DNA of 32,000 bases from Candidatus Saccharimonadota bacterium (GCA_017609205.1 JAFCEL010000001.1:390001-422000), one strand, 5' to 3'. Counted from the stretch's first letter, positions 727-23,720 are shown. Numbers and translations: made by a program. Notes: generated by a model from the letters alone, not told the origin.

Positions 727-881
727 TATAGGGGGTTCGGAACTCTGCGCTCACTTCGTTCGGGACGCCTAACACGGCTTATGAGGTTCGCTTCGTTGCA
801 CTTCGCTCTCCCAAATTGAGTTCTCAGCTCTGTTCCCTTTGGTCACGAGGAAAACTGAAACTTCGTTAAATCGCATATGTT
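727..881 (+). repeat. GC-rich attC-like intergenic repeat, copy B
   Basis: Homologous to copy C with indels. Shared blocks: CTGCGCT (745-751 vs 1331-1337); 15-nt identity CGTTGCACTTCGCTC (794-808 = 1385-1399); 22-nt identity ACTTCGTTAAATCGCATATGTT (860-881 = 1421-1442). GCCTAAC (767-773) fits RYYYAAC and GTTAAAT (865-871) fits GTTRRRY. Starts with TATAGGGGG (727-735), which recurs at 1527-1535. Confidence 0.6.
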
Positions 882-958: not shown

Positions 959-1288
959 ATGAAAATAAATTTTATACCAAAAAGCAATCTAAGTAAATGG
1001 TCTGTTGGATTGATTATCATAACTCCAATATTATTCTACATGGGTATGTCGTTTGTAGGTTTTTATCAATCTGTTCCGGCTGGGAAAACAATACTCCATG
1101 ACATCATTGCCAGACCAGGATTAGCGCTATCAATGTTGGGGGGATTCTTTTCTGGTATTGCCGCTTTTTTTTGTGGTATAATTGGTATTATAAGAAAGAA
1201 AGATTATTCTGTTTTTGTATTTATATCCACACTTCTAGGTTTTTTTGTTTTGTTATGGGTTATTGCAGAGATTTTGTTCCCACACTAA
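959..1288 (+). CDS. Small hypothetical membrane protein (about three hydrophobic helices)
   Basis: 109-aa ORF with hydrophobic segments (WSVGLIIITPILFYMGMSFVGF, LALSMLGGFFSGIAAFFCGIIGII, VFVFISTLLGFFVLLWVIAEILF). No family recognised. Confidence 0.55.
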   Translation: MKINFIPKSNLSKWSVGLIIITPILFYMGMSFVGFYQSVPAGKTILHDIIARPGLALSMLGGFFSGIAAFFCGIIGIIRKKDYSVFVFISTLLGFFVLLWVIAEILFPH

Positions 1289-1442: not shown

Positions 1443-1542
1443 CAATTGAGTTATCGCTTAATTTTAAGAAACGGGAAGGGGGCTTAGTCTCTGCGGGACA
1501 GATAGTTTCGGCTTCGCCTCAAAGTTTATAGGGGGCGTCTTT
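1443..1542 (+). repeat. GC-rich repeat tail carrying the left arms of the inverted repeats that bracket the helicase operon
   Basis: GGGAAGGGGGC (1473-1483) and AGGGGGCGTCTTT (1530-1542) are reverse complements of 7184-7194 and 7178-7190. AATTGAGTTATC (1444-1455) resembles AATTGAGTTCTC (814-825). TATAGGGGG (1527-1535) repeats 727-735. Confidence 0.6.
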
Positions 1543-4500
1543 ATTTTTTTACTAGAATTATTCTTCCATTTTGATTGCTCACTATATTTTCTTTTTCTAA
1601 ATATTTTATAGCTTCTTCTATCTTTGATTTAATTTTCCCACCAGTCCTATTGTTGTGAAAGATTCCTTTCGCAATATCTGCAACTAGTGTTTCTTTTGTT
1701 GCTCCAAAAGTATTTTTTAGAATATCCACAATAGCACCGCCAATCTCTTCTTTTGGAATTAATGTAAATGGTCGTTGTGTTTCTTTTGAAATCCTAATAG
1801 GACAAACACCATCAATCTTATCAATTGAAACAGTATTTCCATAGACATAAATATTCTTATATTCTCTTTTCATTTCATTGACTAAATCATCAAAATTTCT
1901 CTTTAATCTGGCACCTAATTTATTTATCCCAAACGAACTCAGAACTCTTTTGTATAATAATTCCTTTTCAATAGGCGATTCAACTTCTAGAACAGAGAGC
2001 ATTAATTCTTTAGCTTTTGTCCCGCCCCAAACCATATATCCATAACCATCAAACTCTATTTTTGCTCTGGATTTTGGTAATTCAGCAACTTCATATTTTT
2101 CATATTTGTCTTTTAAAGAAACTTCCTTAAAATCTTCCACATCTTCAACCTTTTCAAATCTCAATCCCTCTCTGTGATTCACTTTTTTTGATTTCAATAA
2201 TGAATTAACTTTTTCATTTATTTTCTTGATTTCATATTCCCTGTTATTTAACCAATCATCAGACCAGATTCTGTGAATATTCCATCCAAGACTTTCTAGA
2301 ATAAGCTGCCTAACTTTATCTCTGTCTCTTGCAAATCTTGAAGAGTGATATTGTGAGCCATCACATTCAATTCCCAAAATATAAACCCCTGGTTTTTTAG
2401 GGTGCTTTATTGCCAAATCAACTCTGTAACCAGAGCAACCCACCTGTGTGCTGATGGAAAATCCCTCCTTAACTAATGCCTCATAAACAGATTCTTCAAA
2501 ACTTGAATCAAAATCCAATCCTTCGGTTGTCTGTAAAAACTTGTTGAAATCCTTGTTCTTTGCATAATCCAGATAATATTTTAAATAACGAACCCCATCA
2601 ACATTTATTTTATCCTCATCTAATTCTTCAGGTAAGATAGAAGATAAGACTACTGTTTTGAGTCTTGATCTTGTTATAGCAACATTTAATCTTTTATATC
2701 CTCCTTCCTTATTAAGCGGACCAAAATGGTAAGTTAATTTCCCTGAAGAATCTTTTCCATAGCCAACACTCAATAAAATAATATCTCTTTCATCTCCCTG
2801 AACTGTCTCAAGATTTTTAATAAACAGGTCTTCTCTTGTAGAATCTATTGATTCATCAATATTTATACCAACGACTCTAAACTCTTCTCTGATTGCGTTT
2901 TCCTGTGCAATGCTAAATGCAATAATCCCCATAGACTTTTCAGGGAATTTCTTTTTAAGTTCTTTGTATTTTTTAACAACCTCCCTTGCTTCGACCCGAT
3001 TCTTTCGTGATTTGCCTCTATCATAAACACCATTTTTAACATAGACAAAATCTAACCCAGAATTATCTTTTATTTTTGAATTTGGAAATGTAATAAGTCT
3101 ATGTTCATAAAAAAATCTGTTTGAAAAAGCTATTAAATGCTCATTCTTGCTTCTGTAATGCCAAAGAAGTGGCTTAGTTCTAAATTTAGTGCTGCATTCA
3201 CTAAGAAAGCTCTCTAAATCCTCAATCTCTTCTTCTACAATTTCGTCCTCTCGCCCACTCATAAAAAATGAAGTTGGTGGAAGTTGTTGCATATCTCCGA
3301 CCACAATAGCCTGTTTCGCCCTAATCAAACAAGGGACAGCATCTTCTGGCATAATTTGGGATGCCTCATCAAAAATGACAACATCAAACTTTATAACCTC
3401 TGGATTTATGTATTGGCTAACAGAAAGAGGACTCATCATAAAGCAGGGCTTTAAAGAAAATACTAAATTTGGTATCTCTTCAAGTAAGTTTCTTATTGGT
3501 TTCAATCTTCTTTTCTTTTCGTTCTCTCTTTTTAGGATTGAAACTTCATTTATTCCATGGCTATGATAATTTACAGATGGCTGGTCTTGTTCAATGGAAT
3601 TCATTATTTTATACCGTTTAATATCTCTAACCTCAAAGTCCTTCTCTCTAAACATTTCAACCTTATTTTTTGGAGATGGAATATTATTTTGTCTTAATAT
3701 CTCTTCAAGCAACTGCAAATAGTAAGCTTTCAGGAAAACAGAACTTAATTTTGAAATTATGTCCTCTGTAAAATATCCTCTTATAAACTCTCTTATTTCA
3801 TCGTTCAGAGAGTTGTATTGTTCTTTAAAGATTAAGACATCATCCAAGTGTTCTATATTCTTAATAAACTCGTGGATTTTATCTTCTATTTCATTTATGT
3901 TCTCGGCATTATTCAAGATTGATTTAGATAAGTAATCGTCAATATCTTTAATCTTCTCTTTTAATTCTTCTAAAGAATCTCCTTTATTTTCTTGCGATAC
4001 CCAAAATCTGATTAGCTTAACAGAATCTCTTGATATTCTTTCAGCATTTTTGTGTATTTCTGAAAATTCCTCTGCTTTTTTATTTAACTCATTCAAGTTC
4101 TGTTTGGAATAAATATCCCCCAAATCTCTTACATATTTTTTGTTTTGGTTCTCAATCTTTTTGTGTTTCCCTAAAGTTTTTATGTAGCTATTCTTTAATT
4201 CAAATAACTTAATCCAATCGCTATGCCCTAATTTCTTATTAGAAAATCTCTCAAGCTCTTTTTTAACATTTTTGTATTCTTGATTAAATATCCTTGCCAA
4301 AAAAGAAGTTTCTCTAAAAATCCTCTCATAAGTGTCCGTTTTGTTCTCAATAAATTTCTCTTTTACATTTTCTAGAATTTTTGATTTAATATCATTTATT
4401 TCACTAAGATTTTTGTTTAATTCTGAAATTATATTTTTGTAATCTTCAAATTTTTCAGAGAGAAAATATTCAGGTACATCTTTTATCTTGTTAGCTGTTC

Positions 4501-6052
4501 TATGGAGTTTACAGAATTCTTCCAATTCCTTTAAGGTTTTAATATCTAGGTTTGTTTTATTCTTAATTTCTTTGAGAAACTCCAGAATTTCCTTTAATAT
4601 CTGATGCGTATTATCAATTAAAGTTTTAAATTTATTTCTTGATAAAGTAGTGTTCTTTGAAACTTTGAAATTGAAATAAATATTTTCCATAGGTCGTGGG
4701 ACTTTCTCAATAATCAAATCCAGATCTTGTATCTTTGATAATAATTTTGTAAATTTCTCTTCATTGAATGAGATTGTATCGCTAAGATTTTTATCAAGGA
4801 TTTCAACATTATATAGTCTTGCCAACTCACCACGGATATCATAAATGGATAATGATCTTGGCTTATGCTTCTTGCATAGAAAATCATAAAAATTATTCAA
4901 AGCTCTTTGAGTTTCAATATAATCTGCAAACGAATATCTTTTTACACTCTCTTTAATCTTCGGGGATGTTTCTAATTCTGAAATTAATTGTTTAATAACC
5001 TCTTTTTTATTCCCCTTATAATTGTGTAAATTTAAACAATATCTACCTAAACCAACTTCTTGTAATCTTTTATGGACAACATTAAGAGCTGCCATTTTCT
5101 GGCTCACAAAAAGAATTTTCTTTTTCTTTTCTAAAAGTGCAACAATTATATTTGAAATTGTCTGGCTCTTTCCAGTTCCAGGAGGTCCCTGTAAAACAAA
5201 AGTTACTCCGGCTTTTGCTAATTCAATGGCTAATTTTTGAGAAGAATCTGCTGGCAAAACATCTATATCCTTGGCATCATCAAATTCATCTCTTTGCATT
5301 TCGGCAATTTCATCTTGTAATGCATTCCTATCCCCAACAAATGCCTTAACCAAATTACTTTCATGAAGAAGTTTATTATGCTCTGTCAAATCCCTAAACA
5401 TAATGTATTTCTGGTACGAAAATATGTCAATGTAAATTTCTTTTGTAACTTTCCAATCTTTCATTCCTGAAATAACTTTCTTTATAGAACTTAGATAATC
5501 TTCAATTGATTGTTCTTTAAATTCTGGCAAATTAATATCAAAGTCGTGTGATAGTTTCTCAATTAAAGCAGGATTGACTTGGAGATCCTCAGAACCAGAA
5601 ACCAGCTCAAAACGATGTTTGTCTTTTGATGTTGAAGAGAGCCTATTTAGACTAACTGGATAAAGAAATATTGGAGCTTGTGAATAAAGCTCAGAATTTT
5701 GTGATTCTTTATATTTCAAAATTCCTAAACTTACAAAACAAGTGCTTATACCCAATTCCTGAAAATTTTCTTTTGTTTTTAGGTAAAGGTTAGTTAATTT
5801 TTTATCAACAATATCCTCTTCTTCTGAACAAAGCCAAAGTCTCTCTTTTGGTTTTCCATTCTCTTTTTTTAGAATATTGACATTTTTTTCGTGATGCAAA
5901 TCTTCAATAATCTGCTTAAACTCAGGTTGTATGACTTGCAATGACTTAGATTTTGTAAACCGATAATTTACAAGATTATTCCTTTTAGATAAATCTATCA
6001 GTTTTTTCTTCCAATATTCCGCTTTCTTGGTTATAATTTGCTGGGTATCCAT
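1541..6052 (-). CDS. Large SF1B (Upf1/DNA2-like) helicase: DUF4011-like N-terminus, AAA_11/AAA_12 core, DUF559/Vsr-like endonuclease domain, DUF3320-like tail
   Basis: Intact 1503-aa ORF. The N-terminus (YWKKKLIDLSKRNNLVNYRF) looks DUF4011-like. Helicase motifs: Walker A VLQGPPGTGKSQT (nt ~5165-5200), motif II VVIFDEASQ (nt ~3356-3382), VVGDMQQLPPT, TVQGDERDIILLSVGYG, RLNVAITRSR. The C-terminal GYRVDLAI...ILGIECDGSQYHSS...RDRDKVRQLILESLGWNIHRIWSDDW looks like a PD-(D/E)xK DUF559-type nuclease. Family names come from remembered motifs, not a search. Confidence 0.8.
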   Translation of the reverse strand: MDTQQIITKKAEYWKKKLIDLSKRNNLVNYRFTKSKSLQVIQPEFKQIIEDLHHEKNVNILKKENGKPKERLWLCSEEEDIVDKKLTNLYLKTKENFQELGISTCFVSLGILKYKESQNSELYSQAPIFLYPVSLNRLSSTSKDKHRFELVSGSEDLQVNPALIEKLSHDFDINLPEFKEQSIEDYLSSIKKVISGMKDWKVTKEIYIDIFSYQKYIMFRDLTEHNKLLHESNLVKAFVGDRNALQDEIAEMQRDEFDDAKDIDVLPADSSQKLAIELAKAGVTFVLQGPPGTGKSQTISNIIVALLEKKKKILFVSQKMAALNVVHKRLQEVGLGRYCLNLHNYKGNKKEVIKQLISELETSPKIKESVKRYSFADYIETQRALNNFYDFLCKKHKPRSLSIYDIRGELARLYNVEILDKNLSDTISFNEEKFTKLLSKIQDLDLIIEKVPRPMENIYFNFKVSKNTTLSRNKFKTLIDNTHQILKEILEFLKEIKNKTNLDIKTLKELEEFCKLHRTANKIKDVPEYFLSEKFEDYKNIISELNKNLSEINDIKSKILENVKEKFIENKTDTYERIFRETSFLARIFNQEYKNVKKELERFSNKKLGHSDWIKLFELKNSYIKTLGKHKKIENQNKKYVRDLGDIYSKQNLNELNKKAEEFSEIHKNAERISRDSVKLIRFWVSQENKGDSLEELKEKIKDIDDYLSKSILNNAENINEIEDKIHEFIKNIEHLDDVLIFKEQYNSLNDEIREFIRGYFTEDIISKLSSVFLKAYYLQLLEEILRQNNIPSPKNKVEMFREKDFEVRDIKRYKIMNSIEQDQPSVNYHSHGINEVSILKRENEKKRRLKPIRNLLEEIPNLVFSLKPCFMMSPLSVSQYINPEVIKFDVVIFDEASQIMPEDAVPCLIRAKQAIVVGDMQQLPPTSFFMSGREDEIVEEEIEDLESFLSECSTKFRTKPLLWHYRSKNEHLIAFSNRFFYEHRLITFPNSKIKDNSGLDFVYVKNGVYDRGKSRKNRVEAREVVKKYKELKKKFPEKSMGIIAFSIAQENAIREEFRVVGINIDESIDSTREDLFIKNLETVQGDERDIILLSVGYGKDSSGKLTYHFGPLNKEGGYKRLNVAITRSRLKTVVLSSILPEELDEDKINVDGVRYLKYYLDYAKNKDFNKFLQTTEGLDFDSSFEESVYEALVKEGFSISTQVGCSGYRVDLAIKHPKKPGVYILGIECDGSQYHSSRFARDRDKVRQLILESLGWNIHRIWSDDWLNNREYEIKKINEKVNSLLKSKKVNHREGLRFEKVEDVEDFKEVSLKDKYEKYEVAELPKSRAKIEFDGYGYMVWGGTKAKELMLSVLEVESPIEKELLYKRVLSSFGINKLGARLKRNFDDLVNEMKREYKNIYVYGNTVSIDKIDGVCPIRISKETQRPFTLIPKEEIGGAIVDILKNTFGATKETLVADIAKGIFHNNRTGGKIKSKIEEAIKYLEKENIVSNQNGRIILVKK

Positions 6053-6056
6053 TCAA

Positions 6057-6539
6057 TTATCTCCTTTTATTCACTTCTTTTTGAAATTCACTTCTTATCT
6101 GATTAATTTTCTTTTCATTTAATTTGATAAGAATAGATTTACATTTAATCAGAAATTCAGGGGCTTTTGCTATCATTTTATTGTATTGTTCATCTGGAAC
6201 AGTCCTGTCAACATAATACTGGGAATCTATCCTCGCCTTTAATGAATCCTCAGTAAAGTCTAATTCTTCTTTGTTGAAATAATCTTTGAGAAACCTCTTT
6301 GCAAATTCTATTGTACAGGAATGAATTTCACATTTTACCCCAATCTTTGTTAAAATAGAATAAAGTGAAAAGTAGAGGGTATAATACGCTGTTGAAATTT
6401 TCCAGTCTTTTACAACATTTATTCTCATTGATTCAAGAGATTCCTCAGCTTTTTTGATATAAGCATGAGCAAGATCAGAATTTGGCTCAATCAGGCTTAA
6501 CCCTCCTTTCTTTTTAGAACACCATAATATCTTATTCAT
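6057..6539 (-). CDS. HEPN-like all-helical protein, partner of the upstream nucleotidyltransferase
   Basis: 160-aa ORF that overlaps the MNT gene stop by 8 nt and ends 4 nt before the helicase start. AHAYIKKAEESLESMR...YYTLYFSLYSILTKIGVKCEIHSCTIEF resembles archaeal HEPN (PF05168-type) helices. I find no canonical Rx4-6H motif. Confidence 0.5.
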   Translation of the reverse strand: MNKILWCSKKKGGLSLIEPNSDLAHAYIKKAEESLESMRINVVKDWKISTAYYTLYFSLYSILTKIGVKCEIHSCTIEFAKRFLKDYFNKEELDFTEDSLKARIDSQYYVDRTVPDEQYNKMIAKAPEFLIKCKSILIKLNEKKINQIRSEFQKEVNKRR

Positions 6540-7122
6540 TTTTGAACACCGCCTCTATAAATTGTTCAGCATTAACGAAAACAATATGATTTTTTAATAT
6601 TTCCTTTAGCAGAATGTCTTTGTTTAGATTCTTTTCAAAAGTCTTTATAGGGTAACATTTTATACTTATTTCTATTCCCAAGTTTCTTGAAACTTTCTTT
6701 ATCTCATTTCTATTGTAATCACCAGCAATAAAAATATCCAAATCAGAACCTTTTTTCTCCAACCCCTTGACATAACTCCCAAAGATAATACCAATTCCCT
6801 TAATGTGTGGAGTAATTTTTTCTATAATTTCCTTAATAATAAGCCTCTTTTCCAAAAACGCAATCGCTTTGTATTGCTCAACAAAAACAAGATACCTTTT
6901 AGTAAACTCACTTTGATTAATCTTATAAGTCTTAATCTTCCCCCTTGTCTTTGATTCTATAATACCTTTATCTTCTAAATCTTCAAGGATGAGCTGCGAA
7001 GTTCTCGGACTTATTTTTAATAATTTTTCAACCTCCCGAACATAATATTCTCTCTTAAAATCATTTGTGAATAGAGACAATACCAGTAATGTATTCTCAG
7101 TGATTCTTATTTTTTCATACAT
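6532..7122 (-). CDS. Winged-helix DNA-binding domain fused to a minimal nucleotidyltransferase (MNT)
   Basis: NTase signature GIIFGSYVKGLEKKGSDLDIFIAGD. The N-terminal part (REVEKLLKISPRTSQLILEDLEDKGIIESKTRGKIKTYKI) looks like a MarR/TrmB-type wHTH. I place the start at ATG 7122 (MYEKIR...) because a strong TATA box lies ~28 nt upstream. The ORF track's start at 7170 is the alternative. Confidence 0.75.
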   Translation of the reverse strand: MYEKIRITENTLLVLSLFTNDFKREYYVREVEKLLKISPRTSQLILEDLEDKGIIESKTRGKIKTYKINQSEFTKRYLVFVEQYKAIAFLEKRLIIKEIIEKITPHIKGIGIIFGSYVKGLEKKGSDLDIFIAGDYNRNEIKKVSRNLGIEISIKCYPIKTFEKNLNKDILLKEILKNHIVFVNAEQFIEAVFKNE

Positions 7123-7143
7123 ATGTATTATTAAACATACAGG

Positions 7144-7156
7144 TAATATATAAAGC
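7144..7156 (-). promoter_or_regulatory. TATA box for the MNT/HEPN/helicase operon
   Basis: The minus strand reads GCTTTATATATTA, centred ~28 nt upstream of ATG 7122. Confidence 0.45.
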
Positions 7157-7170
7157 TTTTGGTGGTTCAT

Positions 7171-7279
7171 TAAAGTAAAAGACGCCCCCTTCCCTTAGAA
7201 TATAGTCTGCTTCGCAGAATTGATATGGCGAGAACTCAACTTTGATTTTTTGCCTTTGGCATCGTCGCCTAACTTAAAT
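7171..7279 (-). repeat. GC-rich repeat block related (in inverse orientation) to copies B and C; carries the right arms of the bracketing inverted repeats
   Basis: AAAGACGCCCCCTTCCC (7178-7194) is the reverse complement of sequences at 1530-1542 and 1473-1483. GAGAACTCAA (7230-7239) is the reverse complement of TTGAGTTCTC (816-825). GCCTAAC (7267-7273) reads GTTAGGC on the minus strand, a perfect GTTRRRY core. CTGCTTCGCAG hairpin at 7208-7218. Confidence 0.55.
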
Positions 7280-8380
7280 TCAAAGCCCTAATTGTTTGAT
7301 AAATTTCTTTTTATCAAAGACCTCTATTTTTTCGTATTCCTGTCCTGTACCGAGAAAGAGGATTGGTTTTTTTGTGACATATCCCACAGATAGTGCAGTT
7401 CCTCCTTTTTCATCTGTGTCTGCTTTTGTTAAAATTATTCCGTCAATTCCAATTGCCCAGTCAAAGCTTCTAACCTGCTCAATAATATCATTTCCAGCAA
7501 TTGCCTCGCCGACAAAGATTTTTGTATCTGGCTTGCAAACTTTGGCAATTTTTTCAATTTCTTTTAAAAGATTTTTTGCAGTATGCATCCGTCCTGCAGT
7601 ATCTATAAGTACACAGTCGATAAAATTCTTCTTGGAGTATTGAATTGCGTCAAAACCTACAGAGGCTGGGTCAGAACCATATTTATTTGCAATAACTTTT
7701 ATTCCTAATTTCTCTCCATGTTTTTTTAGTTGTTCTATTGAAGCAGCACGAAATGTATCTGCAGCAGCGAGAGTGCAAGAAATATCCTTCTTTTTCAAAT
7801 ATTTCGCGATTTTTGCAATAGATGTTGTTTTGCCTGTTCCATTAATACCACAGAATAAAATTACATACGGCTCTTTTGATTGGTCCTGTTTTTTGTCTTT
7901 GATTCTTTTGGTGATATCGAATGGTTCTATTAAGATATCCTCTATGATTTCTTTTAAAGAATCTTTTATCTCTTCTTCAATCTCTTTTTTTAATAATTCT
8001 TTTCCAATGATTTTTTCCTTAAGCTGCTTGATGACTTTCTCTGCAACTTCTAATGCGACGTTATTTTCTAAGAGAAGCATCTCTAGTTCTTCTGCATAAA
8101 TCTCAAAATCTTTTTCAGATATTTTAACTTTTGAAATTCTTGAGGTTACTTTTTTAAAAAAAGATTCTGTTCCAGGTTCGGATTTTAACTTTTTTTGAAT
8201 GTTTTTTAATTCTTCAGTATCTGGTTCGAATTTTTGTTTTCCAGGGTCAAATTTTAGGGGCATCTCTATTTCTTGTTTCTTCTTTTTGGATTTGCCCTCT
8301 TTTTTTTCTTCAACTGGAGCTGATTTTTCTGATATCTTCTTTGTCCAGTCTTTTAATTTTTCTTTTAGTTTGTTAAACAT
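7280..8380 (-). CDS. ftsY: Signal recognition particle receptor FtsY
   Basis: K/E-rich N-terminal domain followed by an SRP-GTPase domain: ILFCGINGTGKTTSIAKIA (G1), DTAGR (G3), LTKADTDEKGG (G4). Confidence 0.9.
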   Translation of the reverse strand: MFNKLKEKLKDWTKKISEKSAPVEEKKEGKSKKKKQEIEMPLKFDPGKQKFEPDTEELKNIQKKLKSEPGTESFFKKVTSRISKVKISEKDFEIYAEELEMLLLENNVALEVAEKVIKQLKEKIIGKELLKKEIEEEIKDSLKEIIEDILIEPFDITKRIKDKKQDQSKEPYVILFCGINGTGKTTSIAKIAKYLKKKDISCTLAAADTFRAASIEQLKKHGEKLGIKVIANKYGSDPASVGFDAIQYSKKNFIDCVLIDTAGRMHTAKNLLKEIEKIAKVCKPDTKIFVGEAIAGNDIIEQVRSFDWAIGIDGIILTKADTDEKGGTALSVGYVTKKPILFLGTGQEYEKIEVFDKKKFIKQLGL

Positions 8381-13006: not shown

Positions 13007-13136
13007 AAATAGAGATAAAAAAACGGGTTTTTAAAGTTAATTAATCATCATGCTAAGAATCTTATCTTACAAATTTTTTTATAGGGTTTATCCTTTGGGA
13101 ATTTGTTTCACAGGATTTGTTCAATTTGAAATTAAT

Positions 13137-13207
13137 GGTCCTGCCCAGAATCGAACTGGGGTCTCTTCCACGTCAAGGAAACGTCTTAGCCACTGGACTA
13201 CAGGACC
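13137..13207 (-). tRNA. tRNA-Val (anticodon GAC)
   Basis: The minus strand reads GGTCCTG TA GTCC AGTGGCTA AGAC G TTTCC TTGACGT GGAAG AGAC CCCAG TTCGATT CTGGG CAGGACC. 71 nt, with a canonical T-loop. Confidence 0.85.
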
Positions 13208-13268
13208 TTCTTTTAATAATAATTTTTTATTTAATAAACTTTATATACAATATTTTATTATTCTTTCT

Positions 13269-15128
13269 ATGTTTAGTAAAAGAGGAAGTAAGAAAGGACA
13301 AATCACAATTTTTCTTATTCTTGCGATTCTTCTAATTGCAGGAATTGGAGGGTATTTTTTATTAAAGAATAGATTATCTTCTTCTGAAATCCCTGCGAAT
13401 TTAGAGCCTGTTTATACTACTTTTTTGCAATGTTTTGAGAATGATGTTCTGACGGGAATAGACGTTTTAGAAAGTCAAGGAGGGTATATTGAGTTACCTG
13501 ATTTTGAAGTCGGTTCTGCCTATATGCCCTTTGGTTCTCAACTTTATTTTTTTGGGAATCCGATTCCTTATTGGTATTATGTTTCTGGAAATAATATTCA
13601 GAAGGAGCAGGTTCCTTCTTCTTCTGAGATGGAAAGGCAATTAGGAAATTTTATCGCAGGAGAAATCATGGATTGTGTTTTTGACTCTTATTATGAGCAG
13701 GGTTTTGAAATTAGCTATGATAAGCCAAATGTTGATGTTAATATTGAAAAAAATTCTGTTAGAGTTAATCTTAAAATGAATCTTAATATTACTAAGGGAG
13801 ATGATACTGTTCTTGTGAGAGACCATGAGATCGAAGTTAATTCTAAGCTTGGTTCTCTTTATGAATCAGCTAGAAAAATCTATGATTATGAGCAAAATAA
13901 TCTTTTCTTAGAAGAATATGCTATTGACAATCTGAGACTTTATGCTCCTGTGGATGGTGTTGAATTAACTTGCTCTCCTCTCATATGGAAGGCAGATAAT
14001 ATTTTTGAAGATCTAAAAAATGCAATAGAGCAAAATACTTTGTCCTTGAAACTTAAAGGTGGTGATTATTCTCTTTTAAGTAAAGAAGATAAATATTTTG
14101 TTATTGATTTAGATGTTGGTTCAAATGCAAGGTTTTTGACTTCAAAGAATTGGCCAAGCAGTTTTGAAGTGACGCCTGCTGAGGGAAGCATTCTTCTTTC
14201 TAATCCTATTGGAAATCAAAAAGGATTAGGAATACTGGGTTTTTGTTATGTTCCTTATCATTTTGTTTATAGTATAAAATACCCTGTTTTGGTTCAGGTT
14301 TATGAAGGAGAGGAAGTCTTTCAATTTCCAGTTGCAGTTGTTATTGAGGGTAATAACCCAAGACAGGCGCTCAAATCCAATGCTGTTGAGGTTGAGTCTC
14401 CTGGTATCTGTGAGCATAAAAATACAGAGGTTGAGGTGAGGGTTTATGATTTAAAATATAATCCTCTTGATGCAGAAATATCTTTTGAGTGTTTTGGAGA
14501 GAGGTGTTCTATAGGGAAAGCAAAGGAGGGTGTTCTTGTCTCTGAATTCCCCCAGTGTGTGAATGGATATATTATTGCTGAAGCAGACGGCTTTGCGAAA
14601 TCAAAATCTCTTTTTTCAACAGTGTCGAGTAATATTTCAGAGATATTCTTGGATAAACTTTATGATGTTGATATTGACCTTAAATTAGATGGAGCAGATT
14701 ATAAAAAAGGTGCTGTTATTGTTTTTGTTTCTGATGATTTTTCAAAGACCATTGTTTATCCTGATACTTCTAGTGTTGAATTAAAGCAGGGGCAATATGA
14801 AGTTCAAGTTTATGTTTATAGGAATTCTTCTATCAACTTAGAGGGATCGTCGATGAAGCAGTGCCTTGAGGTTCCTCGTGAAGGACTCGGGGGTTGGTTT
14901 GGTTTGACTGATGAAAAATGTTTTGATGTTGAAATTCCTCCTCAGATTATTTCGAATGCTCTTGCAGGAGGAGGCAGACAAAATCATTATATTTTGGAAA
15001 GTGACTTAGAAAACGCAGAGGTTATTGAGATAAATGCTCAGAGTTTGCCGACTCCGAAGTCTCTTGAGCAGTTACAGGAAAATTATATTTTGTTTGAAAA
15101 TAAAGGGCTGGATATATATTTCAGATGA
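13269..15128 (+). CDS. Large secreted or surface protein with an N-terminal class III (type IV pilin-like) signal or anchor; function unknown
   Basis: The start is moved to ATG 13269 because the track ORF (13050) reads through tRNA-Val. The N-terminus is MFSKRGSKKGQITIFLILAILLIAGIGGYFLL, i.e. a basic stretch, G/Q, then a hydrophobic helix. 619 aa, several Cys, no recognised domain. The stop overlaps the next gene's start (ATGA at 15125-15128). Confidence 0.7.
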   Translation: MFSKRGSKKGQITIFLILAILLIAGIGGYFLLKNRLSSSEIPANLEPVYTTFLQCFENDVLTGIDVLESQGGYIELPDFEVGSAYMPFGSQLYFFGNPIPYWYYVSGNNIQKEQVPSSSEMERQLGNFIAGEIMDCVFDSYYEQGFEISYDKPNVDVNIEKNSVRVNLKMNLNITKGDDTVLVRDHEIEVNSKLGSLYESARKIYDYEQNNLFLEEYAIDNLRLYAPVDGVELTCSPLIWKADNIFEDLKNAIEQNTLSLKLKGGDYSLLSKEDKYFVIDLDVGSNARFLTSKNWPSSFEVTPAEGSILLSNPIGNQKGLGILGFCYVPYHFVYSIKYPVLVQVYEGEEVFQFPVAVVIEGNNPRQALKSNAVEVESPGICEHKNTEVEVRVYDLKYNPLDAEISFECFGERCSIGKAKEGVLVSEFPQCVNGYIIAEADGFAKSKSLFSTVSSNISEIFLDKLYDVDIDLKLDGADYKKGAVIVFVSDDFSKTIVYPDTSSVELKQGQYEVQVYVYRNSSINLEGSSMKQCLEVPREGLGGWFGLTDEKCFDVEIPPQIISNALAGGGRQNHYILESDLENAEVIEINAQSLPTPKSLEQLQENYILFENKGLDIYFR

Positions 15129-18100
15129 AAATGAATAAAAAAACAGGGATGGAAGTTTGTTTGATATTAGGAATTATCTTTTTCTCATTTGTTAGTGCAG
15201 GAAGTTATTCTCAGGCAAATCCTAATTATGGTCTCATAAATCAATATGTAGATGGGGGTTCAGTTAATTTAGATCATAGAAAATGTGAAGCAGGACAGGA
15301 TTTTGTTTTGCAGATTTCTCCATTTGGTTGTACGCCTCCTGTTGTGAGAAGCGATCTATTAGAGGAGCAGAATGTTCCTGTATTTTGTGCTATTGCTGCA
15401 ACGCAGGTTAATCCTTTAATTGATGTCGAAGCTATTGAGGGAATATCTTTTTCAGGAGAATATCCTAAAGAGGTTTCAGGAATTGGATTCCATCCTGCTA
15501 GAGCCGCATTAGGAACTGCTAAGAAGACAAATTATCCTCTTTTAGAGAATATTGGCTATGCAGTGATTGTTTTGAAAAAACAGCCGAATGAATCAGCAAT
15601 GCCTGATTTTGTTGAGGGAAATTTGACTGCGAAAATTAGATATGATATTAAGAATGCTTTTGGAGTTGGCAATGCTTTATTTTATCTTCCTGAGATGGAT
15701 GATGGTGAATTTGAATTGAACAAAGGCTATTATAAATTCTGGAAGAAATTTTACTTAAGAGCAGAAAGAATTGAGGAAAATTATGCAGTTGTTTCAATAT
15801 ATGATGATTCAAAGAAAATTTCTACAACAACTCTCAAAAAGGGAGAGACCTCAGGTAAAATTTCTGTTCCAGGTTTTGGTTGTATGGCTAAACTACAATT
15901 GAGGTTGGATGATCTTGAAAACCCAGGGACAACTGCTAAATTAGATGTTAATGGAGAAATTATCGAACTTGTCGAAGGGCAGAAATTTTTAGAAAATAAA
16001 TGCCAGATTGTTGGAATAGAAAAACAAGGGCTTGTACAGAAGGTTAAGATAAAGTGTTATGAGGATAAAAAATCAGATATCTTTGAGTTAAAAATTGTTC
16101 CAAGAGTAAGGATTGAATTTGACAATGATGGTGGAGAGGATTATGGTATTGAAGAGGAAATAGGAGGAACAGGATTTAGAATTGTGTCTATAAAAGTTGA
16201 AGATAAGGAGGGTATTAAGGAGGAAAAGTTAATCGTTGAATTGCAGAAGGATGATGATAAGAAGAGTTTGAGATATGGTGATGCAATAACTATTGGTGAT
16301 AAGAGCGTTAGACTTCTTGGGTTTGCAGGACCGCAGGATTCTGAACTTGCAGGAGATGTTAGAACTTATTATGAATCAGCGATGAAAGATTATGAAACTA
16401 TTATTAATAGTTTTTCTAGTGAGAGTTGCGATGGGTTTAAGGATTGTGGAGAAAAGGCTTTTATTGAGGAGATGAAACTCGCTTATGATATTGGACAAAG
16501 CAAGACTTTTTATGAATTATGTAAGAAGTTTGATGAAAAATATCCTGATTCTGATAAGGAATTAGAAGAATGCAGTGAGGATTATAAGCTTTCAAGTAAT
16601 GAACCTTCAAGTATACAGGTTTTGATTAATGGCGAGGTTAAGGATATTTCTTTTATTGGGGTTATTGAATCCTCTTTTGATGATTATGGAGCAAGAGTGG
16701 TTGTTGATGGAGCGACTTATGATTTAATAAAGGATAAGGTTTTTTATCTTGCAGATGGTCAGAAGGAATATTTGCAACTTCTTGGATTAGAAGAGGACTA
16801 TGCGAAGATTAAGGTTTATCTTAGGAAAGATAATTCCGATGGTTTTGTGAATGGCATATATACTTTGAAAAAAGGGATTCATGAAAGTTTTGGAAGTGTT
16901 CATGATATCTATCTTGGGGATATTAATTTGAGGAAATATGCTAAAGTATCTGTGATTTCTAACATTGATAATGTTGGTAGTGTGGGAAATTTTGGTTTTA
17001 AAATTGGGATTGAGAAAAGAGCAATCAAACTTGCACCTGAAAAGATTCAAGAAAAAATAGATTCTTTAAATGAAACTATCTACAAATGGGAGGAGCGTTC
17101 TGAGAATTTGGGACAAATGGTTAAAGGTTTAAAGGGAGCCTGTGTTGCGACGAGTGGTTTTTTAATAGCTAAAAATTTCTTGTTTAATTCTGGGGATTCT
17201 CTTGCAAGAAAAGATGTGATGGATATTTGGAATAAAAAATGCACACGATTAATTAGTGAAGGGAAGTATAGAACGCATGATGAATGTTATGCAGATAATG
17301 ACAAGGCAATTGACGACGCTGTTAAAAATAGGGCTAAGATAATGAAAGAAATCAGTGGCGAATTTAGTAAGATTCAGGATGATCCTGATATAACAACAGA
17401 GAAGTGGGCGGGATTAGAAAAAGAGATTAATGACAAAAAGCTTTGGGAAAAAATAAAAACAAGGTCTGATTTTTTAACAGAATTGAAGTCTGATTTGAAA
17501 GAGTGTTATGGGGACGAAAAAATAGTTGTTAATGAAAGAGAGAGTTTTTCTATTGATGATTTGATGGAGGATAATAAGAGATTTGGTTCAGAATATTTGA
17601 CTATTACTCAATTAAGGGATTTGATGGTAGATGCTAAGGATTGCAAGAATAATCCTGAACTTGCAAAACAGAGATTGAATTCTTCATTAAAATCTTTGTG
17701 GGTAAATAGCCAATCAACTTATATCAAAGAGGGTCTTTCTGAGGAATTAGAGAAGGGTGGTTTTGGGGATTTTGAGGTTGATTCTTATGGAGATAGGAAT
17801 GCAATTGAGGGTATTTATTATGGTGGGACTCTTACTTCTGATAAGATTTTGAATTCAGACAATGAAAAATTTCTAAAAGATAAAGAAGATGATGGAAAAG
17901 TGATAAATTATCCTGTGCAGATTATTATTTATAATAATCAAAAGTATCTTGTATTATTAGAGCCTACAAAAAGAGGGGATTATATTGTTGACAAGGTATA
18001 CGAATTTAGGGATGCAGAAGAGGGGAAGTTAATTGTTGGAAAAGAGCGGGACGATATTAGAAATAAATTTAAGTCTTTTACTCTTGAGGATAGAGATTCT

Positions 18101-20098
18101 TATAACAATCCGTTCAAGGCATCGATGGGAGAGACAAAACCTGTTGTTAGGTATTTTGAGACAGAGCCTCATAAGGGTTTGCCTGCTGTTGTTCCTTTTG
18201 ATTTGAAGAAAGGGTGGTATGTTTATGTAAGCCAAGATATTGGTTTTGCAGGGGGAACTGCTAGTTATGATGATTCAGGTGCTGTGAGAAATTATTATAT
18301 TTGTAATGTTGGAAAAGATGGAATCGAAGATGGAATGCGTCCTGATGATAAATGTAGGATGATTAACAAAGGAACAGGACAGCTTTATAATCGATTTGGT
18401 GGGTTGGATGAGTCAGAAGCTGGTAGGTTAGTTAAATGTGCAGAGGATTCTATTGTGCAGGCATCAAGGCAATATGGAAAGAAAAAGATTTCAATTAGCA
18501 CAACCTGTGGAGGAAGTGTAACTCTTGATGTTGGAAGTCCTGCTGTTGATATCCCTTCTATGCAATGCCAGAATTTTATGTCCCCTTCTGATTGCCAGAT
18601 TTTGTTTAATGTTTGTGACCCTGTGATTTGCCCGTCGAGTAGATGTGATTTTGGAGGCAGGTTTCCTGTAAAAGATGTTGTTCAGTCAGGAATTATCGGC
18701 AGTTTGTTGCTTTGCCTCCCTAATTTTGGAAATCCTGCAAAAGGAGGTGTTGCTATTCCTATTTGTTTGACTGGATTAAAAGCAGGAATTGATGGTTTGC
18801 TGTCAGTATATAAATCTTATAGAGATTGTTTACAAGAAAGTCTTGATACTGGGAAGACTGTTGGAATATGTGATGAAATATATTCAATTCATCTATGCGA
18901 ATTTATGTGGAGACAGGCATTGCCTCTAGCAAAGTATTCTATTCCTAAGATTATAGAATTTTTGATTGACCAAAATGCGAGAGGGGGAGGGGAATACCTC
19001 ATGTTTAGGACTGCCTTGAATAATATGGATAATTCAATGAATTACTTTACAAATTATTATGCTGCAAATGCTTTCAAGGCGTTCAAAGTGCGTTCTGTTG
19101 AGGAGGTTGGGACAGAGGTTTGCAGAAATTATATCTCTGGCGTTGGCCCAAATATCGACGGGATGTTAGAGTCTTTCACAGAACCAGACTCTCCTGCTCA
19201 GTTTCATGGAAGGTTTGATGAAATTCCTTTCACAACAGCAACAGTACCAGCAACTTCTCATTATAAAGTGTTTTATCATATCTATGCAGGAAAAGATTCG
19301 CGAGTATATTACTCTGTTTATTTAAGGGGTGCTCCAGAAAGTTCTTATTATATGGATTCAACTCAAACAAGAATTGTAGACTCTGGGTATATCAAAGCAG
19401 GAGAATATGTCTCACAGACAAAAGATTTTACTGCTCCTTCAGGATATAAGGAAATGTGTATTAGGGTAAATGAGCAGGAGGAGTGCGGATTTAAAGAAGT
19501 TTCTACTTCTTTTGCTGTAAACTATGTTAAGGATTCTTATACTAAGTCACAGGCAACTGAGAAGAATATACAGTCAGAGAGTGAATGTATTTCTGGAACA
19601 GTCAATACTGGGACTATTCTATCAGGGGCATTAAGCTCTAATTTGCAGGAGGGTGCTGAGAAAATTGTTAATCCAAAGATTTATGAGAGAGGAATTATCA
19701 GAATATGTGCTCATGATAATCCTGGTATTGGGACAGATGCAAAAGCAGAGGCAAATGGCTCACGTTGGGTTGAAGTTGGATATTGTGATAAGGATAGAGA
19801 AATAAAATGCTGGCTTGATACAGAGAGTGTTAAGAAGATAATCAGGGATAAGGAAGTTAAAGGCGAGACACTTGAAGAAATTAATAGCAATTATATGAAT
19901 ATTCTTGGAGATACAAAAGAGGCAAAAGCAGCAAAAGAAAAACTTGTTGGGTTGGGTAATGAAAAAGATTCTAAGAAGATTATTCAGGTTATTGATGAGA
20001 TAGTTGATGATTTGATTATGAATAAAGATAAAGCACATGCTTTATTATTAAGAGCACAATCTTATGGAAAATTAGCAATAGAAAACGGTTCTATTTAA
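15125..20098 (+). CDS. Giant (1657 aa) Cys-rich secreted or surface protein; function unknown
   Basis: Intact ORF with an N-terminal hydrophobic signal (MKMNKKTGMEVCLILGIIFFSFVSAGSYSQ). I count about three dozen Cys. Dense Cys module CQNFMSPSDCQILFNVCDPVICPSSRCDFGG (nt ~18560-18657). No recognised catalytic motif. Confidence 0.75.
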   Translation: MKMNKKTGMEVCLILGIIFFSFVSAGSYSQANPNYGLINQYVDGGSVNLDHRKCEAGQDFVLQISPFGCTPPVVRSDLLEEQNVPVFCAIAATQVNPLIDVEAIEGISFSGEYPKEVSGIGFHPARAALGTAKKTNYPLLENIGYAVIVLKKQPNESAMPDFVEGNLTAKIRYDIKNAFGVGNALFYLPEMDDGEFELNKGYYKFWKKFYLRAERIEENYAVVSIYDDSKKISTTTLKKGETSGKISVPGFGCMAKLQLRLDDLENPGTTAKLDVNGEIIELVEGQKFLENKCQIVGIEKQGLVQKVKIKCYEDKKSDIFELKIVPRVRIEFDNDGGEDYGIEEEIGGTGFRIVSIKVEDKEGIKEEKLIVELQKDDDKKSLRYGDAITIGDKSVRLLGFAGPQDSELAGDVRTYYESAMKDYETIINSFSSESCDGFKDCGEKAFIEEMKLAYDIGQSKTFYELCKKFDEKYPDSDKELEECSEDYKLSSNEPSSIQVLINGEVKDISFIGVIESSFDDYGARVVVDGATYDLIKDKVFYLADGQKEYLQLLGLEEDYAKIKVYLRKDNSDGFVNGIYTLKKGIHESFGSVHDIYLGDINLRKYAKVSVISNIDNVGSVGNFGFKIGIEKRAIKLAPEKIQEKIDSLNETIYKWEERSENLGQMVKGLKGACVATSGFLIAKNFLFNSGDSLARKDVMDIWNKKCTRLISEGKYRTHDECYADNDKAIDDAVKNRAKIMKEISGEFSKIQDDPDITTEKWAGLEKEINDKKLWEKIKTRSDFLTELKSDLKECYGDEKIVVNERESFSIDDLMEDNKRFGSEYLTITQLRDLMVDAKDCKNNPELAKQRLNSSLKSLWVNSQSTYIKEGLSEELEKGGFGDFEVDSYGDRNAIEGIYYGGTLTSDKILNSDNEKFLKDKEDDGKVINYPVQIIIYNNQKYLVLLEPTKRGDYIVDKVYEFRDAEEGKLIVGKERDDIRNKFKSFTLEDRDSYNNPFKASMGETKPVVRYFETEPHKGLPAVVPFDLKKGWYVYVSQDIGFAGGTASYDDSGAVRNYYICNVGKDGIEDGMRPDDKCRMINKGTGQLYNRFGGLDESEAGRLVKCAEDSIVQASRQYGKKKISISTTCGGSVTLDVGSPAVDIPSMQCQNFMSPSDCQILFNVCDPVICPSSRCDFGGRFPVKDVVQSGIIGSLLLCLPNFGNPAKGGVAIPICLTGLKAGIDGLLSVYKSYRDCLQESLDTGKTVGICDEIYSIHLCEFMWRQALPLAKYSIPKIIEFLIDQNARGGGEYLMFRTALNNMDNSMNYFTNYYAANAFKAFKVRSVEEVGTEVCRNYISGVGPNIDGMLESFTEPDSPAQFHGRFDEIPFTTATVPATSHYKVFYHIYAGKDSRVYYSVYLRGAPESSYYMDSTQTRIVDSGYIKAGEYVSQTKDFTAPSGYKEMCIRVNEQEECGFKEVSTSFAVNYVKDSYTKSQATEKNIQSESECISGTVNTGTILSGALSSNLQEGAEKIVNPKIYERGIIRICAHDNPGIGTDAKAEANGSRWVEVGYCDKDREIKCWLDTESVKKIIRDKEVKGETLEEINSNYMNILGDTKEAKAAKEKLVGLGNEKDSKKIIQVIDEIVDDLIMNKDKAHALLLRAQSYGKLAIENGSI

Positions 20099-23374: not shown

Positions 23375-23403
23375 GATTCTTGATTGGTTTCTCCTGAGGA
23401 TTA

Positions 23404-23476
23404 AGCGCAGGCCGGGACTCGAACCCGGGAAAAATCGGGCTGCAACCGATTGCAGTAGCCGCTGTGCCACCTGCGC
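23404..23476 (-). tRNA. tRNA-Cys (anticodon GCA)
   Basis: The minus strand reads GCGCAGG TG GCA CAGCGGCTAC TGC A ATCGG TTGCAGC CCGAT TTTTC CCGGG TTCGAGT CCCGG CCTGCGC T. The U73 discriminator is typical of tRNA-Cys. Confidence 0.8.
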
Positions 23477-23554
23477 CTAACTCCAATAAAATAATCACCT
23501 ATATAAAATTAATCATCACAAAACTTTAAATATAATTCTAACAATTCTTAGTAT

Positions 23555-23642
23555 GGTCCTGTAGCTCAGTCTGGATAGAGCGACTGCCTTCTAACTCTTC
23601 GGAGGTGAGCAGTAGGTCGCAGGTTCAAATCCTGTCAGGGCC
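23555..23642 (+). tRNA. tRNA-Arg (anticodon TCT) with a 14-nt intron after position 37
   Basis: GGTCCTG TA GCTC AGTCTGGATA GAGC G ACTGC CTTCTA[ACTCTTCGGAGGTG]A GCAGT AGGTC GCAGG TTCAAAT CCTGT CAGGGCC. 74 nt plus a 14-nt intron. Confidence 0.85.
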
Positions 23643-23720
23643 ATTTTGAGAATGATTTTTCAATTTATTTTCTAGAGAACTAGTAAGGCTGTTAGGTTAC
23701 TGGAATCTTGGTTCAGAAAT

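Follow-up and report, generated by a model that had tools for sequence, protein, structure and literature searches.

A rare archaeal operon joining an MNT-HEPN cassette to a DUF4011 helicase-nuclease is probably a composite of two separable modules

The window analysed here is the whole 32,000-nucleotide (nt) stretch JAFCEL010000001.1:390001-422000 of GCA_017609205.1 (Candidatus Saccharimonadota bacterium), an AT-rich DNA of ~32% GC. Its subject is an operon of three minus-strand genes that encode, in order, a winged helix-turn-helix domain fused to a minimal nucleotidyltransferase (wHTH-MNT; 196 amino acids, aa; 6532-7122), a HEPN protein (160 aa, 6057-6539) and a DUF4011/superfamily 1B (SF1B) helicase-nuclease (1503 aa, 1541-6052). 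The names attached to homologues suggest a Woesearchaeota/Nanoarchaeota affiliation, and thus a small archaeon of DPANN type, for the source of the DNA. The operon of three genes exists as described, although it is rare and easily lost, and it probably does not represent a new obligate three-part defence system. The first open reading frame (ORF) spans 6532-7170 in its longest form; its true start is at 7122 and not at 7170, because a TATA box lies inside the longer ORF, the homologues are of ~196 aa (all those listed among the best 120 of 743) and public gene calls use 7122. The MNT stop and the HEPN start overlap by 8 nt (ATGAATAA, 6532-6539), and the HEPN stop codon, TAA at 6057-6059, is separated by 4 nt (TTGA) from the helicase ATG at 6052, a junction where GGAG can be read ahead of the ATG. 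The sole promoter-like element for all three genes is an archaeal TATA box read in the sequence, TTTATATA, on the minus strand at 7147-7154, preceded by CCAAAAGC, which resembles a B recognition element (BRE). The distance from the 3' end of the TATA box to the ATG at 7122, 25 nt, implies that the mRNA has no leader or almost none. The single transcription unit proposed in a preliminary description of this DNA, with the same overlap, the same gap and one upstream TATA box (placed there at 7144-7156), is thus borne out.

A candidate operator, TGTAT-N8-ATACA-TA-TGTAT, occupies 7117-7141 on the minus strand; it follows the TATA box, overlaps the start codon and contains the 12-bp palindrome ATACATATGTAT. 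The TATA box is invariant in 9 cassettes, among them the divergent one of locus L003 (the loci compared here carry such numbers), and the whole non-coding block from the TATA box to the start codon is invariant in all 9 aligned cassettes, L003 included; upstream of the BRE the sequences are unrelated, the homology of the cassette to other loci beginning just upstream of the BRE/TATA, at ~7161-7167. Archaeal repressor sites classically take the form of a palindrome located between TATA box and transcription start. The wHTH-MNT may autoregulate the operon, and hence also the helicase, at this candidate operator.

The wHTH-MNT (minus strand) matches Pfam NTP_transf_2/Polbeta in its C-terminal minimal nucleotidyltransferase (NTase; GS...SDLD), whose motif GSYVKGLEKKGSDLD, with G115, S116 ... 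S126, D127, L128 and D129, is invariant in 20 homologues. Its N-terminal domain has a winged-helix fold resembling the MarR/TrmB/ArsR regulators. PADLOC relates the protein to PDC-M05A (PDLC04368; E 2.7e-16, aa 13-185 vs profile positions 17-190 of 201), and its score against the MntA equivalog NF047752, 22.1 bits, is below the cut-off of 60; it is a putative MntA-type antitoxin and autoregulator.

The HEPN protein (minus strand), of the UPF0332/PF05168 type, is the putative toxin partner. It passes the Pfam PF05168 threshold only barely (23 bits vs a cut-off of 22), and its AlphaFold2 (AF2) model (pLDDT 85) has as top PDB match the AF_0298 HEPN protein 2hsb (TM 0.77), the next fold neighbours being the HEPN domain of sacsin and the toxins of HEPN-MNT systems (8xdj, 8xeh and 6m6u). 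Its invariant polar residues, in an alignment that includes paralogues of 23-35% identity, are H73, S74, R103 and Y108. The motif R103-IDSQ-Y108 has the form R-x4-Y and lacks the His of the canonical R-x4-6-H RNase motif. The same R-x4-Y is found in a weak PDB match, the HEPN domain proteins 9xbd/9xbc, entries that differ by Y or F at the aligned Tyr; the loop carrying the motif is modelled by AF2 at low confidence. Among the PADLOC models, that of PDC-M05 subunit B included, no family matched the HEPN protein even at E<=10. By analogy with type VII HepT-MntA, an RNase activity of HEPN and its nucleotidylation on Tyr are plausible, with Y108 and Y109 as candidate AMPylation sites by position only.

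Two known pairs offer a comparison. The likeness to type VII HepT-MntA resides in the MNT gene being first and overlapped by HEPN over 8 nt, in the GS...DxD motif, and in a HEPN fold whose structural neighbours are the AMPylated HEPN toxin 8xdj, the HEPN-MNT complex 8xeh and MntA-HepT 6m6u; the window pair is unlike it in having a PF05168/UPF0332-type HEPN with R-x4-Y and an additional N-terminal wHTH on MNT. PDC-M05 is an archaea-enriched NTase+HEPN candidate pair with a putative antiviral role (PMC12988326). The window pair resembles it in the subunit A match and in the NTase+HEPN architecture, but its HEPN matches no PADLOC model and a helicase follows in the same operon.

The product of the third gene, the putative effector, combines on the minus strand a DUF4011 N-terminal domain (aa 17-167, 5552-6004; Pfam E 8e-27), an SF1B helicase core (aa 269-1137, 2642-5248; Pfam AAA_11/AAA_12) with a ~450-aa insertion between Walker A and Walker B, an MTES_1575/DUF559 Vsr-like PD-(D/E)xK nuclease (aa 1185-1282, 2207-2500; Pfam E 4.6e-35) and a Pfam DUF3320 match at aa 1349-1384. 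Its sequence matches in the PDB are Upf1/Nam7, IGHMBP2 and Sen1 (2xzl, 4b3g, 5mzn and 2gjk; E 5e-10 to 1e-7). Across 15 homologues, down to 32% identity, the Walker A GPPGTGKS (289-296), DEASQ (895-899) and the motif V/VI residues are invariant or nearly so; in the nuclease motif E1229-C-D-G the last three residues are invariant, like D1212 of the same domain, and E1229 is nearly so. With motifs I, II, III, V and VI conserved and the similarity to Upf1/IGHMBP2/Sen1, the core belongs to the Upf1-like SF1B helicases. The assignments of the preliminary description are therefore upheld for all three genes: a winged helix fused to an MNT by the Pfam NTase and wHTH fold matches, a HEPN-like protein by the Pfam threshold and the AF2 fold, and a Upf1/DNA2-like SF1B helicase with a DUF559/Vsr-like nuclease and DUF4011- and DUF3320-like ends by the agreement of Pfam, PDB and invariant motifs.

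The helicase belongs to a family already represented among defence models. The hidden Markov model (HMM) of PDC-S37, a PADLOC single-gene phage defence candidate (PDC; Payne et al. 2024, 10.1101/2024.01.29.577857), covers it in full length (1192.8 bits, aa 5-1495 vs profile positions 4-1541 of 1550), and the PADLOC models Hhe, MkoA and MkoC match it partially. PDCs are guilt-by-embedding predictions. The likeness to PDC-S37 extends to relatives that lie next to or within restriction-modification (R-M) loci; relatives are found without MNT-HEPN as well. The difference is that PDC-S37 is by definition a single gene, whereas in the window two genes, MNT and HEPN, precede it in its operon. The gene hhe has been used experimentally as a single-gene helicase+nuclease defence (bioRxiv 10.1101/2024.10.10.617714). 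Like Hhe, the window protein unites DUF4011 at the N-terminus, an SF1 helicase core and a Vsr/DUF559-like nuclease in one polypeptide according to Pfam, and the C-terminal half aligns well, the best stretch being confined to aa 669-1323; unlike Hhe, it is archaeal, ~300-400 aa shorter, coupled to an upstream gene and far below the cut-off (752 bits vs 2000 for NF042953; 528 bits with the PADLOC Hhe model). The 'anti-phage protein ProA' (NF058533) aligns with aa 5-1462 but, at 1127.6 bits, falls short of the 1500-bit cut-off, and profile positions 1-353 have no counterpart in the window protein; our literature search for a description of ProA found none, and the label is that of the NCBIfam name alone.

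The gene upstream of the helicase was compared at 80 loci of species-representative genomes, 11 metagenomic loci and 30 loci on viral contigs, to which look-ups of individual close homologues were added. In L003, from a Woesearchaeota metagenome-assembled genome, whose helicase is 54% identical to that of the window, the same MNT-HEPN pair lies upstream with the same 8-nt overlap, and the pair also precedes the helicase in a 97%-identical strain (L101). Within the close archaeal helicase clade, of ~14 distinct loci, MNT-HEPN adjoins the helicase only in the window lineage and in L003. At the other ~125 helicase loci no adjacent MNT or HEPN gene was found by phmmer with the window proteins, by custom HMMs built from diverse MNT and HEPN sequences, or by a Pfam survey that took in 122 upstream ORFs at 68 loci. 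A weak match to the MNT profile in L092 was rejected as an MNT, the gene encoding a Fic+wHTH (SoFic-like) protein. The closest other relatives, of 68-85% identity (L081, L082-84, L089-L092, L094 and L132), carry in the same slot a conserved 48-aa ribbon-helix-helix (RHH)-like gene that ends 0-3 nt before the helicase ATG, located in L081 at 422-568, L089 at 3851-3997, L132 at 239-385, L091 at 339-485, L084 at 1229-1375, L090 at 2578-2724, L092 at 3812-4000 and L094 at 230-382. The similarity of its product (MGSKNITLKVDE..LVISRQFEIF..) to RelB-like/RHH proteins is sub-threshold (RelB E 0.04). In Pseudomonas aeruginosa, too, a small hypothetical gene paired with a large DUF4011 gene has been described, at the edge of the defence hotspot cDHS1. 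In other members of the clade the slot is occupied by a Zn-ribbon gene (L002), an 83-aa ORF (L085) or an AlbA_2+HATPase_c_4+HTH protein (L001), or by nothing (L133). Almost every helicase gene of this archaeal clade thus has a small upstream gene to which it is translationally coupled and which can be exchanged.

The exchange is exact. The DNA homology with the RHH-type loci runs from the helicase ATG (6052) to 1522, ~20 nt past the stop codon, and L091 in addition shares the upstream segment 7242-7181 with the window, so that window positions 7180-6053 (1128 nt with the promoter, MNT and HEPN) correspond to 278 nt with a promoter and the RHH gene, the rest being collinear. The neighbours of relatives include type I and type II R-M genes, a tyrosine recombinase/integrase, an insertion sequence (IS) transposase, a PDDEXK gene and a Fic+wHTH SoFic-like gene; the context of the helicase is variable and accessory and not, as would speak against a defence role, a conserved housekeeping one. 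On the downstream side, genes overlapping the helicase stop codon were observed in L092 (8487-9530, Fic+winged-helix, SoFic-like) and in L085 (9503-10180, a PDDEXK_1 nuclease), and this side is therefore also a slot for defence-type genes. The preliminary description had suggested that MNT-HEPN could be a sensor/regulator pair for the helicase in a candidate undescribed system and had asked whether it recurs ahead of DUF4011 helicases. The comparison does not support a dedicated role of this kind: helicase homologues almost never adjoin MNT/HEPN, an outcome which that description had itself named as a refutation, the nearest relatives carry the RHH-like gene, the cassette is found alone and outlasts the helicase, and PADLOC already lists both halves as separate candidates.

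The MNT-HEPN cassette has a wide existence of its own. Homologues (743 for MNT, 1016 for HEPN) come from Woese-, Pace- and Nanoarchaeota; the best 120 of the 743 MNT matches are 80-97% identical, the best 120 of each gene 77-100%, and the lengths of the listed homologues are near-constant at 196 aa (MNT) and ~160 aa (HEPN). Helicases above 60% identity form far fewer clusters (~16) than there are cassette homologues, and at 90% clustering the HEPN cluster has 14 members vs 4 for the helicase. The edges of cassette homology are sharp, at 7161-7167 upstream and ~6065-6077 downstream. Stand-alone cassettes and tandem MNT-HEPN arrays are found in L134-149. The arrays of L142-L149 (4001-8268) comprise 2-3 different MNT-HEPN pairs, 23-36% identical to one another, and in one variant a 207-aa protein stands in place of the second HEPN.

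The cassettes closest to that of the window carry truncated 5' pieces of the helicase gene directly behind HEPN, followed by unrelated DNA. These stubs measure ~9 codons in L151 (7073-7099), 13 codons in L152-154 (L152 6488-6528), ~31 codons in L099 (4001-4098), ~35 codons with a frameshift in L098/L150 (L098 3982-4092, L150 7071-7180) and ~48 codons in L096/97 (L096 484-632, L097 849-994). In L134-141 and L142-149 homology already breaks off in the final codons of HEPN, whose C-terminus is changed. Because the breakpoints of the stubs differ, the comparison points to at least 5, probably 7, independent losses of the helicase with the toxin-antitoxin (TA) pair kept. No stub exceeds 48 of the 1503 codons, as might be expected if dead DNA were eroded step by step until the edge of a selected gene was reached. 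In a rough neighbour-joining (NJ) tree of MNT+HEPN the intact trio of L003 is basal and the window clade, also intact, is nested among stub cassettes, a topology from which linkage to the helicase looks ancestral for this cassette subfamily and the stand-alone copies derived. Between the window and L003 identity amounts to 54% for the helicase, 72% for MNT and 78% for HEPN. The trio is not a chance juxtaposition, because its junction has been inherited across divergent lineages and the stubs attest to the ancestral linkage.

The module is bracketed by a multi-copy, GC-rich, structured intergenic element of ~150-215 nt. Its 3' ('B') part, which ends in GGGAAGGGGGCGTCT, occupies 7180-7242 (minus strand), just upstream of the cassette promoter, and the same 'B' piece precedes the RHH-helicase pair in L091 and MNT-HEPN in L152. 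A full 5' ('A') copy lies on the minus strand at 1300-1443, ~100 nt downstream of the helicase stop (nhmmer E 9e-36, with covariation in the outer helix P1), and a second, more diverged copy at 743-881 (minus strand). Between these two copies there is an ORF of 109 aa (959-1288, plus strand) without a family match, and a 22-nt direct repeat, AACATATGCGATTTAACGAAGT, is present at 860-881 and 1421-1442; as a whole this resembles a cassette. Copies elsewhere were located in L085 (12071-12152, 12756-12861 and 13625-13775), L093 (2085-2269 and 2696-2848), L091 (17-212), L090 (1167-1335), L089 (8935-9095), L152 (5140-5330), L142-149 (3637-3721) and L143 (6734-6874), and loci with copies near helicase or MNT-HEPN cassettes comprise L081, L085, L089-L093, L098, L142-149, L150 and L152. 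The three copies of L085 separate single small genes, the stub of L098/L150 abuts a copy, and the junction of the L099 stub, GATTTAACGAA, is the start of the outer helix of the element.

Across copies the joints of the element (AACAT, GAAGT, ATTTGGG, TGTTA..CCCCGA, GAGAGCGCAGCGTGG and GAAGAAGT) are conserved and its helices variable, the interior being a three-way junction with conserved single-stranded joints. In P1, compensatory changes affect 9 of the 10 pairs, and pairing amounts to 92.7% vs 27-53% in slid controls. An integron attC identity, as in clusters of attC sites lacking integron-integrases (CALINs), was considered and rejected in view of the covarying outer helix, the three-way-junction interior and the absence of an integrase in the window, where neither a tyrosine recombinase nor an IntI integrase was found. 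The window copy reads ATTTAAC/GTTAAAT, which is RYYYAAC...GTTRRRY-like; the outer helices of the other copies differ, so attC cores are not a feature of the element. Rfam searches with the GC-rich flanking sequences of the window and 7 loci gave no match at the gathering threshold or at E<=1. Because of the compensatory changes in P1 and the conserved junction sequences, the element is to be regarded as a structured RNA or single-stranded DNA element and not as a canonical attC. An unknown non-coding RNA, a miniature inverted-repeat transposable element and a cassette-boundary site are candidates for its nature. TA cassettes in integron arrays are an example of TA modules that stabilise or regulate accessory genes beside them, and in archaeal CALINs TA and restriction cassettes are reported to be common (Ghaly et al. 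2022, PMC9668308). The present arrangement is like these arrays in that an addictive pair is found among small accessory cassettes separated by structured repeats, and unlike them in that the window repeat is not a canonical attC and the window holds no integron integrase.

No long direct or inverted repeat (>=14 nt) bounds the module. A shorter one does: the sequence that immediately follows the helicase stop codon on the minus strand, AGACGCCCCC (1531-1540), recurs as its inverted complement, GGGGGCGTCT, at 7180-7189, and a second partial inverted copy, GCCCCCTTCCC, follows ~60 nt further on (1473-1483, minus strand). The three genes are in this way bracketed by an inverted repeat of 10-11 nt (7180-7194 vs 1531-1540 / 1473-1483), for which 0.14 matches would be expected by chance, and whose 3' sequence also follows the RHH-linked helicases (homology to 1522). 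The repeat-bounded character ascribed to the region in the preliminary description holds for the pieces of the structured element and this short inverted repeat, and not for long flanking repeats.

The module has FtsY (7280-8380) as its neighbour on one side and small accessory ORFs on the other. The remaining genes of the window are housekeeping genes (GINS, S3Ae, S8e, TFB, aminoacyl-tRNA synthetases and tRNAs, and also phosphoglycerate mutase and ribosomal proteins). Two large overlapping ORFs on the plus strand, of 692 aa (13050-15128) and 1657 aa (15125-20098), have no Pfam or PADLOC match, and a tRNA-Val detected by both ARAGORN and Rfam (13136-13207) is located inside the former, on the opposite strand. 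A tRNA of 89 nt (23555-23643, plus strand; Rfam 59.9 bits), not called by ARAGORN, stands head-to-head with tRNA-Cys (23403-23477) and may be an intron-containing archaeal tRNA.

We consider it probable that the locus is a composite operon of two separable and already catalogued modules, an MNT-HEPN TA cassette and a stand-alone helicase-nuclease; as an operonic fusion of two known kinds of candidate, it does not amount to a new category of system, but is no simple artefact either. The first module is an autonomous and very abundant DPANN cassette of ~1.1 kb with its own TATA promoter and a palindromic candidate operator, PDC-M05-like and putatively a type VII-like TA pair. The second is a stand-alone DUF4011/Upf1-like helicase/Vsr-like nuclease, PDC-S37 and a relative of Hhe/ProA. 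In this lineage the cassette fills the upstream small-gene slot of the helicase. We propose that it supplies the promoter of the helicase, that a wHTH-MNT dimer represses this single promoter at the operator, and that MNT keeps HEPN inert through nucleotidylation or binding. The helicase-nuclease would be made from the same leaderless transcript and would act alone, in the manner of Hhe, as an anti-virus or anti-plasmid effector. The link between the modules would then be transcriptional, through the shared promoter and TA-style autoregulation, and evolutionary, through the persistence of the addictive pair, and MNT-HEPN would not be an obligatory protein-level sensor for the helicase. The latter may be regarded as expendable cargo, repeatedly deleted down to a stub abutting the HEPN stop while the TA pair was retained. 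The defence or addiction flavour given to the operon by the preliminary description is consistent with the full-length PDC-S37 match, the kinship to Hhe/ProA, the PDC-M05A match of MNT and the defence-type neighbours of relatives.

Several points weigh against this interpretation. The toxin role of HEPN is putative, since its motif has no canonical His, the motif loop is of low confidence and no PADLOC model matches. The helicase scores below the Hhe and ProA equivalog cut-offs, so that its defence function is deduced from family resemblance and context only, and our literature search found no experimental validation of PDC-S37 or PDC-M05, both guilt-by-embedding candidates. In addition, a DUF4011 gene is a core gene in P. 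aeruginosa; not every member of the family is accessory. The neighbourhood samples are modest, the MNT+HEPN tree is a rough NJ tree only, and the stubs L096-99 were found through a pattern of the helicase N-terminus, which biases that subset. Finally, the trio has been kept over a long divergence with translational coupling, and functional cooperation could equally account for this.

The main rival is accordingly a genuine three-component system, in which MNT-HEPN detects infection or exerts a protein-level gating of the helicase-nuclease, for example through control by nucleotidylation or with a HEPN RNase and a DNA nuclease as dual effectors, and in which all three genes are needed for the system to function fully in this lineage. 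The tight translational chaining behind a single promoter, the same junction inherited in L003 in spite of only 54% helicase identity, a linkage that appears ancestral for the whole 196-aa MNT/160-aa HEPN subfamily, and the independent flagging of both halves as defence candidates are all in agreement with such a system. It is nevertheless difficult to reconcile with helicase relatives of up to 85% identity that carry an unrelated 48-aa gene or other small genes in the slot, with the survival of MNT-HEPN where the helicase is missing, in 7 or more configurations of separate origin, and with the other ~125 helicase loci devoid of adjacent MNT/HEPN; we therefore regard it as unlikely. Of the two lesser rivals, neutral hitch-hiking would have a mobile TA cassette land upstream of the helicase with no meaningful functional consequence. 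Its sharp borders at 7161-7167 and ~6065-6077, its presence in many unrelated contexts and in tandem arrays, and the structured repeat elements that bracket such cassettes would suit a mobile cassette. However, expression of the helicase must depend on the cassette promoter, because the gap is of 4 nt and there is no other promoter-like signal; moreover, the cassette sits exactly where relatives have a coupled small gene and the arrangement has been kept over a long divergence, which makes neutrality distinctly improbable. That the helicase-nuclease is a DNA2/Upf1-like housekeeping enzyme of DNA repair or replication, with the TA pair only stabilising the chromosomal region, would agree with the housekeeping genes that directly flank the module in the window (FtsY, phosphoglycerate mutase, GINS, ribosomal proteins and tRNAs) and with the core gene of P. 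aeruginosa, yet is very hard to credit given its patchy distribution, its variable contexts beside type I/II R-M, integrase, IS and SoFic genes, its repeated deletion and the representation of the family by the anti-phage models Hhe, ProA and PDC-S37.

A bolder reading, which we think quite unlikely, is that in this DPANN lineage the helicase-nuclease is switched, in TA fashion, by wHTH-MNT/HEPN. The wHTH-MNT would hold the operon, via the invariant operator, and HEPN in check, and viral interference with MNT or with host expression would simultaneously free the RNase and de-repress the DNA helicase-nuclease. If this were true, the locus would constitute a so far undescribed three-gene abortive or defence system directed at both nucleic acids, and the archaeal DUF4011 helicases would be 'regulator-slot' effectors whose upstream sensors or regulators (RHH, Zn-ribbon, AlbA_2-HTH and MNT-HEPN) are exchanged as cassettes at a precise junction.

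The finding has a bearing on the DPANN archaea, in which few defence systems are recognised and the PADLOC 'PDC' candidates dominate (PMC12988326): two of these candidates, PDC-M05 and PDC-S37, are here physically fused in one transcription unit, and the locus offers clear constructs for first functional tests of both. It also cautions against inferring an obligate multi-component system from the tight packing of an operon alone. Of all the results, the natural series of swaps and losses and the flanking structured element are the most useful. This series amounts to a natural experiment: one and the same helicase stands behind different genes, exchanged precisely at its start codon, and one and the same TA cassette is followed by a complete helicase, by a stub or by none. 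It bears on the questions of which component is addictive and which expendable cargo, and of how archaeal defence genes are wired to their regulators.

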